Of a stretch of 64,000 bases of DNA, positions 3,654-18,519 are shown in pieces. The translations under genes and the position numbers were made by a program. The DNA lies in IMG/VR virus record IMGVR_UViG_3300042882_000890, positions 32,001 through 96,000 of that record; one strand, written 5' to 3'. Under the pieces are notes generated by a model, which made no database searches, was not told the origin of the DNA, and saw only the letters and a list, made by a program, of their open reading frames with translations. The DNA is from a virus. Numbering within the stretch: the first letter of the stretch is position 1; the number at the start of each line of letters is the position of its first letter.

Positions 3654-4040
3654 ATGAGAACAGCATACGAGTTGTACCAAGTGGCTTTTATAAGACACAG
3701 CGATAGTAGTATGAGTATCGAAGCCCTAGACAGAAAGGGTAGAGTTTTTGTTGCCCACTTGAAACGTACCGATGACAGATATTGGGAGGGAGTTACAGAC
3801 TTTAGGGGTTTAACCAACAGAAAAGTTTTTAAAGGTATTATCCAAGAGTTTCTCCAAGACCTAGTTAACGAAGTCAGAGAGTATGACAAGCGTTGGTATG
3901 ACTTACATTGTATGGTTCGAGTAGAAGAAAACGGAAACAGACCGCTAACGTGGGAAGAAACGTATAGTAGAGGATTTATTAACGAAGACGAGCCGACATT
4001 CAAAGGTGGAGTAACATTTTTAGTTCAAAGATATGAGTAG
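3654..4040 (+). CDS. hypothetical protein
   Basis: tightly packed ORF. Confidence 0.7.
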   Translation: MRTAYELYQVAFIRHSDSSMSIEALDRKGRVFVAHLKRTDDRYWEGVTDFRGLTNRKVFKGIIQEFLQDLVNEVREYDKRWYDLHCMVRVEENGNRPLTWEETYSRGFINEDEPTFKGGVTFLVQRYE

Positions 4041-4263
4041 TAGTAGTATTCAAGAAAATTCAGTAGTGTACTTCAAAGATGATAGAAGTAAGCACCCGTA
4101 CCTAGTACACCAAGTATTAGACAAGAACAATATAATTTTAGGGTTGAAAGACTTTCCGGAAATTGAGCAAGACTTTACAGTATCAGAAGATGATATTAGT
4201 TTATTCAAAGCAGGATTGGAAAGGGATTCAGCAGAGGGATTAATACAAGAACTTTTAAATTAG
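4033..4263 (+). CDS. hypothetical protein
   Basis: overlaps upstream stop. Confidence 0.65.
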   Translation: MSSSSIQENSVVYFKDDRSKHPYLVHQVLDKNNIILGLKDFPEIEQDFTVSEDDISLFKAGLERDSAEGLIQELLN

Positions 4264-4599
4264 CTAATATGAAACAGAACGTATTTGTATTTTTAATGGC
4301 TTGTGGGTTTGCTTATCTTACTCACGCTCTTTGTGGGGGAATAACTCTTTCATTTTGGCAACAAGTCGTAGGATTTTCGGTTTGCCTAGTTTTTTGGCTG
4401 TTGTTTTTTGCTCCGGCATTTATTTTAAAAGATAATAAATTATGAAGTGTACATTAAGTAACTTAGATAAAGTGTTTAAAATAATCTATGAACAGCATTT
4501 AGATAATTATGAACACGCTGAATTTGATGATGAAACAGATTTGTTAAGTGCGGTAGAAAGCGTTATAAGACAAATAGAAGAAAAATAATTGTAAAAAAG

Positions 4600-16259: not shown

Positions 16260-16291
16260 TTTGCAGGATTAAAAAATAAGTTGTACCTTTG
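16260..16291 (+). promoter_or_regulatory. promoter driving the RNA-gene cluster
   Basis: TTTG-N20-TACCTTTG followed by about 700 nt without a plausible ORF. Confidence 0.8.
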
Positions 16292-16308: not shown

Positions 16309-16970
16309 ATAACCTGTACCCCCGAAAAACTCGTATTAATGATAAGCAGGTTATCCCGACATAAAGGGGTAGGAGAATTAGGGAAAATAAAGATTATGAA
16401 TGTGGTGCGACTTCTGCACAGATAGCTTAAAAGTCAGTAAACGAGCAGATAACTGAACTGCCACACAATCTTTATCTGTGTAAATATAGTAAATAGACGT
16501 AAGGCAGAGGGTCTTGAGTTAAATCGGACATTCCCCCCTACATAGGTAGCACGGAATTTATTTTTTAAGGTTAAACATTCAAACCTTTGTAATAGACTGT
16601 TAGGGGTCTTTAAGACGGAGTGCTACTTTACATAAAAGAAGTATTTTGCTTTACATAAAAAATGTTAATAGGTTAAACATTGAATACCTTTGTAAACAAA
16701 AAGCCTGCCTTAATGAGGTCTGCGTTAAAAGACTTGGCTATAGTAGTCTGTTTACATAAAGATACATGCAGTAATGTATGAACGTGAGTTGCCTTGAGAA
16801 AGCAATAAATATTAAGAGTATTAAATTGATATACTACTCACGTAATGAGCCTCGGCAAGTAGTTAATCAGGTGTGAGTTCAGTAATCCTCCCAATTACAC
16901 ATCGAAAGGAGGTAGTTAACTACGTGACCCTACTCTTATGTCGCAAGACTATGGATAAGAAAGAGGGTGC
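16309..16970 (+). ncRNA. cluster of unclassified structured RNAs
   Basis: non-coding; many perfect helices and pseudoknots separated by A/T spacers. Confidence 0.6.
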
Positions 16971-16992: not shown

Positions 16993-17157
16993 ATGAAAAA
17001 AGTATTTTTGGCATTAGCTGTTGTTATGGCGATTGCAGTTACAAGTTGTAAACCTGCACCGGCAGAAGTTACAGAAACTCCTACGACAGAAGTTGATACA
17101 CCAAGTGTGGATACAACAACAGTTGATACTACCACTACTGTAGATACAGCTGAGTAG
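16993..17157 (+). CDS. small Thr-rich lipoprotein (54 aa, not in ORF track)
   Basis: MKKVFLALAVVMAIAVTS-C lipobox; VDTT repeats. Confidence 0.8.
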   Translation: MKKVFLALAVVMAIAVTSCKPAPAEVTETPTTEVDTPSVDTTTVDTTTTVDTAE

Positions 17158-17249
17158 TATTTAAGAGTCGAGGCTCAATCCTTTGATTTGAGCACGCTAC
17201 CTCGGACTTTGACAAGTGCCCCCACACGGGGGATTTTTTAAAGAATGTT

Positions 17250-17359
17250 TTGGGTATGTTGAATGGTAAACAAGCACTGTGACCAGTGTGGCATAGAGTT
17301 GAGAGTCCGGATGTCAAAACTCTTATAAGTCCTTGGGGGTTCGAGTCCCTCTACCTAAT
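17250..17359 (+). ncRNA. tRNA-like RNA lacking a canonical anticodon loop
   Basis: acceptor TTGGGTA/TACCTAA, D-loop AATGGTAAA, T-arm GGGGG-TTCGAGT-CCCTC. Confidence 0.65.
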
Positions 17360-17372
17360 CAAAATTATAGAT

Positions 17373-17738
17373 ATGGAAATAGTAGAAAGCGTAGTAAAAA
17401 GAGCTAATAGTTATTTAAGAGATACAGAAGACTGTATAGAATACCCCATACTAAATAAAGATGGCTATGGAGAAATGCAAACTTATTTATTAGGTAAGAA
17501 AAAGCATTATTTGATGCACAGAGTATCTTTCCAAATATTTAGCGGTATAGATATAAGTTCAGATAATATTATTTGTCATAAGTGTGATAACCCTAGTTGT
17601 ATAAACCCTAGACATTTAGTTTTAGGCACTCATTTAGAAAATGTAAAAGATAGGGTTATAAAAAACAGAAGTGCTAAAGGTAAAAATAATGGTAGGTATA
17701 AACATGGTACCTATGTAAAAAATAACCCAAATGGGTAA
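17373..17738 (+). CDS. free-standing HNH homing endonuclease
   Basis: HRVS...CHKCDNPSCINPRHL..GT..EN..D; start at ATG 17373. Confidence 0.88.
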   Translation: MEIVESVVKRANSYLRDTEDCIEYPILNKDGYGEMQTYLLGKKKHYLMHRVSFQIFSGIDISSDNIICHKCDNPSCINPRHLVLGTHLENVKDRVIKNRSAKGKNNGRYKHGTYVKNNPNG

Positions 17739-17740
17739 CA

Positions 17741-17806
17741 GAAAAGTAGTTTGTTGATATATTATTGAAGTTGACCAACACCCGAGTTCGACTCTCGGCA
17801 TCTCCA
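17741..17806 (+). ncRNA. ssrA: tmRNA acceptor piece (3' part of a permuted tmRNA gene)
   Basis: T-arm CCGAG-TTCGACT-CTCGG, acceptor strand CATCTCC, discriminator A; 5' boundary approximate. Confidence 0.8.
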
Positions 17807-17937
17807 CTAATCACTTGGTATTAAGGTGGTTACAGTTTCCTTGAACTATAAACAAGGTGGTGGAGTCACTGAGCAATCAGTTGACCTAAAGGGGCTTTTG
17901 GAAGATTGTGCCACTTTATAAAAAACAATCTATATAA

Positions 17938-18052
17938 GGGGATGACTGGTTTTGATTGGCAATAAGTAGGTAGTAAGGAGAATGTACTTTAAACACAAAC
18001 GGAGACGTTTACCAACTTGGTGGTGTTCAGCTTAGAGCTGTAGCATAACCAC
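17938..18052 (+). ncRNA. ssrA: tmRNA coding piece (5' part of a permuted tmRNA gene), tag GDVYQLGGVQLRAVA*
   Basis: GGGGATG-ACTGGTTTTGA 5' end pairs with 17799-17805 giving G3:U70; tag ORF 18001-18048; 3' boundary approximate. Confidence 0.8.
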
Positions 18053-18080
18053 GCCTGAGGAGAGCGAAATCTCCTCAAAT

Positions 18081-18154
18081 GCCCCCATAGCTCAGTTGGT
18101 CAGAGCAACTGACTCATAATCAGTAGGTCACAGGTTCAAGCCCTGTTGGGGGCA
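18081..18154 (+). tRNA. tRNA with CAT anticodon, probably tRNA-Ile2 (lysidine type); Met not excluded
   Basis: full cloverleaf GCCCCCA...TGGGGGC-A; ACTGA-CTCATAA-TCAGT anticodon arm; CCA not encoded. Confidence 0.92.
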
Positions 18155-18173
18155 CAAACTAAAAACAAATAAT

Positions 18174-18474: not shown

Positions 18475-18486
18475 CACTTAACATAG

Positions 18487-18519
18487 AGTATCTCTTTTAA
18501 TTAGGGGATACTTTTTTTT
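18487..18519 (+). terminator. intrinsic terminator-like hairpin in the nrdB leader
   Basis: AGTATCTCTT/AGGGGATACT stem followed by a T run. Confidence 0.6.

Follow-up and report, generated by a model that had tools for sequence, protein, structure and literature searches.

Two-piece tmRNA is the textbook example of a circularly permuted RNA gene and has been described as arising in three bacterial lineages. In the stretch of viral DNA considered here (64,000 nucleotides, hereafter the window), a short segment near replication genes resembles such a gene, with the acceptor half (17741-17806) encoded upstream of the 5' half (17938-18080) on the same strand. The locus raises the question whether this is a genuine and working two-piece tmRNA gene, and from which tmRNA lineage its unusual order was derived. 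The window corresponds to positions 32001-96000 of an IMG/VR virus record of 106.6 kb, which is about 70% complete and has about 34% G+C, and the original prediction of a permuted tmRNA gene in a phage agrees with the viral nature of this record. Across many studies, the stretch occurs in at least 14 DNA runs of lake or freshwater origin. The replication genes near the tmRNA encode a 3'-5' exonuclease, a PD-(D/E)XK nuclease, NrdB (nrdB), NrdA (nrdA), DnaB and DNA polymerase A, and giant virion proteins are encoded on the opposite strand of the window. The nearest isolates are the Cellulophaga phages phi17:2 and phi4:1 (37% for DnaB, 30% for a structural protein), together with crAss-like phages, and by these similarities the phage is crAss-related. 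Since the nearest isolates infect Cellulophaga, a genus of Bacteroidota, a Bacteroidota host is likely, in line with the predicted assignment to a Bacteroidota phage. The RNR and the other proteins of the window were uninformative on the host, and a weak hint is given by the Bacteroidota -7 box TANNTTTG, which is mildly enriched in the window (123 versus 93±10). Boxes of the same type, TACCTTTG, at 16284-16291 and 16685-16692, head repeated leader-like units before a non-coding stretch.

The acceptor piece, 17741-17806 on the plus strand, consists of the 3' strands of the P2 helices, the T-arm (CCGAG at 17782-17786, loop TTCGACT, CTCGG at 17794-17798), the acceptor 3' strand CATCTCC (17799-17805) and the discriminator A (17806), which is followed by CTA, so that CCA is not encoded. 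The intervening segment (17807-17937, plus strand) contains a window-specific hairpin at about 17808-17833 and a conserved element, here called E, at about 17834-17889; it matches no Rfam family. The coding piece (17938-18080, plus strand) begins with the acceptor 5' strand GGGGATG at 17938 and continues with the D-loop analogue ACTGGTTTTGA, the P2 5' strands, the tag frame and two hairpins, one inside the tag frame and a terminal one of the form GAGGAGA-GCGAAA-TCTCCTC. GGGGATG and CATCTCC form seven pairs including G3:U70, and four P2 helix segments join the two pieces, among them TTGG (17956-17959) with CCAA (17775-17778) and, distally, TACTTT (17985-17990) with AAAGTA (17743-17748). The tRNA-like domain is thus complete, with the 7-pair stem and its G3:U70, the discriminator A, a 5-pair T-stem, a TTCGANT loop and a GG-bearing D-loop analogue. 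The tag frame (18001-18048) has no start codon and encodes the tag GDVYQLGGVQLRAVA, with a hydrophobic and Ala-containing tail, before the stop TAA. Every coordinate of the original prediction was recovered base for base from the sequence, and the minimum-energy fold of the whole 340-nt precursor (RNAfold) gave the same helices. The mature size, predicted at 180-200 nt, was set slightly too low: about 66 nt plus CCA and 143 nt give roughly 212 nt, provided that the coding piece ends where tRNA-Met begins, and we infer a 3' end at 18080 from an RNase P cut at the 5' end of that tRNA.

PK1 is important in the tmRNA of Escherichia coli. In the window gene the last P2 strand ends at 17990 and the resume codon is at 18001; the gap of about 10 nt leaves no room for PK1, which is therefore absent. 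After the tag there are simple hairpins only and then the tRNA. None of PK1-PK4 is found in the two pieces, as had been expected from the lack of room for them, and the sole PK4-like element is located in the spacer.

ARAGORN independently called a permuted tmRNA with the same tag, GDVYQLGGVQLRAVA*. The Rfam permuted model RF04321 (tmRNA_permuted) aligned to 17749-18048 end to end with 42.1 bits (E 7.8e-7), so the suggested check with a permuted tmRNA model gave a match that fell short of the cut-off of 47; for annotation, the window gene lies just below the Rfam threshold. The same model gave 51-65 bits, above the cut-off, for the genes of four related contigs (G004, G005, G006 and G008), and RF00023 also matches the tRNA-like domain of the window gene. 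Blastn searches against 50,697 phage records returned no match for the tmRNA alone, and matches to the tRNA only when the tRNA-Met was included. In phi17:2, the closest isolate, which has 23 tRNAs, a tmRNA was found neither with RF04321 nor by pattern search or ARAGORN.

The gene belongs to a unit flanked by terminator-like hairpins at 17219-17232 and 18485-18514. The first member is a tRNA-like element (17250-17359, plus strand). Its ends, TTGGGTA and TACCTAA, are able to form a stem with G:U as the third pair, and it has a T-arm of GGGGG/TTCGAGT/CCCTC. It has no Rfam tRNA match and is called by ARAGORN only at a relaxed threshold; 17249-17365 is 93% identical to G006, and G005 also matches. 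In G005 and G006 this element adjoins the acceptor piece of the tmRNA with a gap of about 3 nt. In the window the two are separated by an insertion of about 380 bases, absent from both relatives, that carries a free-standing HNH homing endonuclease gene (17373-17738, plus strand; Pfam HNH_3 5.5e-8, PHROG endonuclease families). Directly after the coding piece lies a tRNA-Met (CAT) gene (18081-18155, plus strand; called by ARAGORN, 76.3 bits with the Rfam tRNA model), which is likewise located 3' of the tmRNA in G004, G005, G006, G008 and L030. Upstream of the group, a small ORF of about 54 codons (16994-17156) has a signal-peptide-like start followed by Cys (MKKVFLALAVVMAIAVTSC…), typical of a lipoprotein, and the hairpin at 17219-17232 forms a clean terminator after it.

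Relatives were found by an nrdB search, and nrdB is 89-95% identical across the contigs. G004, G005, G006 and G008 contain the same permuted gene followed by tRNA-Met. A covariation check, suggested with the original prediction, was run on seven genes (the window, G004, G005, G006, G008, L152 and L161; alignment A1) scored against a hand-drawn structure, and it supported the helices. In this alignment 90.6% of cells were paired; in controls with the partners displaced by 1-3 columns, the figure was 41-51%. Two-sided changes were seen in 15 pairs, compared with 0-3 in these controls, and none of 500 shuffles reached the observed covariation. The two-sided changes are distributed over six helices, namely the acceptor stem, T-arm, P2a, P2c/d, in-frame hairpin and terminal hairpin. 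In the acceptor stem, GGGGATG/CATCTCC is replaced in relatives by GGGGGTG/CACCTCC, an A:T to G:C change at 5:68, and in P2 helices 1-3, where pairing is 82-95%, two-sided change affects 6 pairs. The distal helix is TACTTT/AAAGTA in the window and AATTTC/GAAAT in relatives; as it differs yet pairs, pairing was restored after the HNH insertion had altered the 5' end of the acceptor piece. All seven genes retain the tag frame. The tags of the relatives (DNVYQLGGVQLRAVA, DNVYQLGGVQRRFAA, DNVYQLGGVQRIAA, DNVYTLGGVQKRFAA, DNVYTLGGVQMRSAA and ADVYTLGGVQMRSAA) include one in-frame 3-nt deletion (DNVYQLGGVQRIAA), synonymous changes occur within the frame (GGT/GGC/GGG, TAC/TAT), and all seven tags end in AA or VA. 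A Gly at the start of the tag, named in the original prediction as usual in Bacteroidota tmRNAs, is not conserved, because relatives start with Asp or Ala. The tmRNA gene of the window is real, and both its helices and its tag frame are under selection.

Transcription of the locus was detected in RNA contigs of three lake metatranscriptomes from three studies (17819-18004, 17821-17977 and 17846-17981). The flanks of the last contig consist of what we take to be Illumina adapter sequence, which makes it a single cDNA fragment. The RNA covers the spacer and the first 65 nt or so of the coding piece and bridges the predicted RNase P site (17937/17938). In the three metatranscriptomes no RNA contig covers the HNH gene or the downstream ORF, and with these flanking protein genes free of cover the contigs do not represent DNA carry-over. 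The acceptor piece and the 3' half of the tag frame lie outside the RNA contigs, which is not taken as evidence that they are absent, and a piece of 69 nt would escape such libraries. The locus is transcribed in part. Since all contigs bridge the site and contigs cannot show ends, what is documented is a precursor or a stable RNA composed of the spacer and the 5' part of the coding piece.

Taken as a whole, the locus probably represents a true tmRNA gene, circularly permuted and made of two pieces, that a crAss-related lake phage carries within a stable-RNA island, and the product is most likely a functional minimal tmRNA that would rely on host factors. The following course is envisaged. The tRNA-like element, HNH gene, acceptor piece, structured spacer, coding piece and tRNA-Met would be made as one transcript. 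Cleavage by host RNase P is expected at 17938 and at 18081, and the latter cut would also create the 3' end of the coding piece. The acceptor piece would lose the sequence that follows A17806, and a host enzyme would add CCA to it. The two pieces would be held together by the 7-pair acceptor stem and about 20 P2 pairs, and host AlaRS would charge the acceptor piece by way of G3:U70 and A73. With host SmpB and EF-Tu, the charged RNA would enter stalled ribosomes and add (A)GDVYQLGGVQLRAVA. The cleavage sites, the charging, the tagging and any benefit to the phage are what we infer from the sequence, and the roles proposed earlier, escape from host defence and an altered fate of tagged proteins, are speculation. 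SmpB (PF01668) was not matched in the record itself, at its 70% completeness, nor in five related records, two of which are at least 90% complete and one of these 100% complete; in a phage group without an SmpB gene, host SmpB would presumably be needed.

The lack of an SmpB gene can also be read in a different way. An RNA consisting only of a tRNA-like domain in the mycobacteriophage DS6A has been proposed to block host trans-translation (PMC11915505, PMC4131195), and the window RNA might similarly act as a decoy for SmpB or the ribosome, in which only the tRNA-like domain works, SmpB is titrated, host trans-translation is blocked and the tag is never translated. The loss of the pseudoknots and the reported inhibition of tmRNA by a DS6A-like molecule (PMC4131195, PMC11915505) fit such a role. 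Against it, the tag frame has kept its length and phase, with synonymous changes and an in-frame deletion, and retains a hydrophobic AA/VA end. Moreover, both the in-frame and the terminal hairpin change on both sides, and the resume context matches that in the tmRNA of the crAss-like phage phi14:2. The decoy role is accordingly considered unlikely.

A similarly small chance is given to the possibility that the gene is what remains of a one-piece phage tmRNA after recent scrambling or during decay, and no longer functions. It would account for the Rfam score below the cut-off, for a sister phage (G007) with the standard gene order, for the HNH insertion that adjoins the gene, and for RNA contigs that represent only unprocessed or partial RNA. 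The T-loop and D-loop consensus is also broken in some relatives: L152, L156 and L161 have a T-loop of GGCAGAG in place of TTCGANT and a D-loop of AAATAGTATTGA in place of ACTGGTTTTGA, so that parts of the clade may be decaying. In these three genes both partners of the loop-loop contact were changed together, and G008 looks intermediate. Their loop changes could reflect either decay or a co-evolved variant. A remnant is nevertheless difficult to reconcile with two-sided changes in six helices and a conserved tag frame among contigs whose nrdB genes are 89-95% identical, with the repair of the distal helix after the HNH insertion, and with the integrity of all alanine identity features. A functional two-piece tmRNA remains the preferred reading of the window gene.

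Phage-encoded permuted tmRNA is less novel than the original prediction implied, as two-piece phage tmRNAs have been published. Buchholz et al. identified tmRNA genes in 402 of 18,146 phage genomes, 133 of the genes being unique; ARAGORN called 53 of the 133 two-piece, and 50 of these came from aquatic phages (PMC9004378); the window gene is therefore not new in kind. A 2025 tmRNA database paper listed 79 phage sequences, built RF04321 and, for 29,415 Bacteroidota genomes, gave 24,380 standard versus 48 permuted tmRNA instances (PMC11915505). The alpha, beta and cyano two-piece models RF01849, RF01850 and RF01851 were merged as RF04321. The two-piece tmRNAs of Alphaproteobacteria, of one betaproteobacterial group and of marine Cyanobacteria (Keiler 2000; Sharkady & Williams 2004; both as cited in PMC9004378) share with the window gene the order of acceptor piece, spacer and coding piece, the acceptor stem formed between the pieces, G3:U70, a tag frame and a spacer expected to be excised. 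The window gene differs from them in having no pseudoknot, a size of about 212 nt, a tRNA gene that would set the 3' end and a conserved structured element in the spacer, and in that the clade models fail on it. The permuted ssrA genes of OM43 phage Melnitz, Pelagibacter phage HTVC008M, cyanophages and Caulobacter phages (PMC9004378) are likewise aquatic and located among RNA genes, with no integrase context. They are found in myo- or siphoviruses of Proteobacteria or Cyanobacteria and are of alpha or cyano type, whereas the window phage is crAss-related and its gene appears to have other kin. One further entry, the permuted tmRNA of phi4:1 (PMC9004378 Table S1; L122, NC_021788.1, 3920-4581), is the sole Bacteroidota-phage gene called permuted in that table; the ARAGORN call spans tRNA-Tyr, tRNA-Ser and a pseudo-tRNA, looks false and is not accepted as a precedent.

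The sister phage G007 provides a comparison at the same locus. It is complete, with 124 kb and terminal repeats, its nrdB is 94% identical, and its tmRNA (RF00023, 93.7 bits) has the standard order and the same location, with the exonuclease genes on one side and nrdB on the other. This tmRNA shows 75% identity over 80% of its length to the tmRNAs of Flavobacterium psychrophilum and Cellulophaga phages and has an identical 36-nt stretch in common with that of the Cellulophaga phage phi14:2. The latter (L177, NC_021806.1) is a one-piece gene at 4031-4502, with 46 bits against the RF00023 cut-off of 47, and is unannotated in its record. It falls by its coordinates in the g005-g006 junction, one of two intergenic regions of phi14:2 whose transcript levels are reported to exceed those of most protein genes during the whole of infection (bioRxiv 10.1101/2020.03.07.982082). 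This match suggests that one abundant unexplained non-coding RNA region of phi14:2 contains its tmRNA. Its tag tail, GSSVQKLAMVA, resembles the …VQLRAVA of the window, and its resume context, TTTAAAC|GGA, is also similar. The one-piece tmRNAs of phi14:2, of the Flavobacterium psychrophilum phages FpV4 and FPSV and of G007 are, like the window gene, placed in an RNA island beside an uncatalogued lncRNA and encode no CCA. In general, the one-piece tmRNAs of crAss-like and Flavobacteriia phages differ from the window gene in their standard order, their length of 323-470 nt and their 35-38-codon tags, and at the PK1 position they retain some 35 nt that are missing from the permuted genes. Outside the universally conserved tRNA-like domain, sequence likeness to this one-piece family is weak: when the P2 strands were compared with the one-piece genes by short-word BLAST, the right places aligned with E about 0.6, which is not evidence on its own.

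A relative in standard order had been named in advance as a sign of either misassembly or recent rearrangement. Such a relative exists in G007, but because five other contigs and an independent DNA run have the permuted order, it points to a lineage-specific rearrangement and away from misassembly. The independence of the permutation, also part of the original prediction, is favoured by the failure of the alpha, beta and cyano models (13.3 bits for RF01849, the cut-off of which is 50; no match at E<=10 for RF01850 or RF01851) together with nearest kin that are apparently one-piece phage tmRNAs. The source of the window gene is probably to be sought among the one-piece tmRNAs of crAss-like and Flavobacteriia phages rather than in any of the three bacterial two-piece lineages (alpha, beta, cyano), and the swap probably arose separately among phages, the sister phage having the normal order at the same locus. 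If instead a two-piece tmRNA had been captured from an alpha- or betaproteobacterial or cyanobacterial lineage or from their phages, no separate permutation would be needed. The two-piece tmRNAs so far published from phages are mostly aquatic and linked to those lineages (PMC9004378), and the tRNA-like domain is too conserved to place. Capture is nonetheless very unlikely in view of the clade-model scores, of the same-locus gene of G007 and the spacer element, which tie the window to crAss-like and Flavobacteriia phage tmRNAs, and of tags resembling that of phi14:2. The last alternative, an assembly artefact or chimera of two half genes, is hardly credible: the record is a metagenome assembly, but the same order is found in at least five independent contigs, an RNA fragment spans the spacer-to-coding junction, and a DNA run of another study gave one contig over 17300-18137 with 2 differences and the same order, so that the misassembly option of the original prediction can be dropped.

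Element E in the spacer is composed of a hairpin CCTTG/CAAGG, a single-stranded TGGTGGA (17858-17864), a hairpin GTCACTGA/TCAGTTGAC and then CC. The first hairpin and TGGTGGA are invariant in all seven aligned genes, unlike much of the tmRNA. The same build was found in the spacers of the more distant permuted genes L008 and L150, and also in G007 and about 30 one-piece viral tmRNAs, where it occupies the PK4 position before the P2 3' strand; it was not seen in the tmRNA of phi14:2. Both hairpins differ in sequence between groups while their pairing is kept. A covariance model built from one-piece copies only gave 26.3 bits (E 1.6e-4) for the L008 spacer and 15.3 bits (E 0.19) for G005 and G006; its top match in the 64-kb window was exactly the spacer, with 12.4 bits (E 0.36), a marginal score when taken alone but at a revealing position. 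An nhmmer profile of the spacer element was also marginal (E 0.006-0.47), and a pattern for the element retrieved mostly coding-sequence noise, with about 9 of 35 stretches judged genuine. In build and position, E is similar to the domain that one-piece phage tmRNAs have at the PK4 position, the last of their structured domains. A search of 185,579 species genomes of bacteria and archaea for TGGTGGA before a T-arm gave 17 matches, mostly in Actinobacteria and none in Bacteroidota, and capture from a host with this exact motif and spacing is thus not supported.

TGGTGGA is exactly complementary to the predicted mature 3' end, TCCA+CCA, and might hold or mask that end during maturation. The order acceptor-E-coding cannot be derived from coding-E-acceptor by one simple circular permutation, so cassette exchange between phages is possible. 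If the RNA were cut at E in both layouts, gene order would be irrelevant, which would explain a block swap beyond simple circular permutation. That E is a non-disposable processing or folding cassette, always located between the coding and acceptor blocks in either order, is a conjecture that we regard as rather doubtful.

Other phage spacers also contain motifs. The permuted phage tmRNAs of L004 (at about 2494-2632), L005 and L006, with the tags GKTIPLFSNAQVRLAA and GNDYQMKMAA, have a different conserved element of about 60 nt in their spacers (…TTAGGAGATT…GGGGTAGCCTAA.AAAGAATGACAAAA…), and those of L007 and L011 have a common spacer motif, AACCCGTC.CGTTAGTACGGTTTTA. On the basis of such shared motifs, conserved structured spacers seem to be common in phage two-piece tmRNA genes. 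An especially compact permuted gene, with a 20-nt spacer and the tag ANDKFALAA, was found in L012 (11760-11988, minus strand) and also in L019; it has tRNA-Arg on both sides and the same ending of a hairpin followed by a tRNA.

The presence of both gene orders at one locus in sister phages offers a natural before-and-after pair for studying the origins of permutation. Judged from the aligned genes, the permuted form, a tmRNA of about 212 nt, has no pseudoknots, and its tag is still under selection. Should it prove functional, it would give a lower bound for the requirements of trans-translation, with SmpB supplied by the host.
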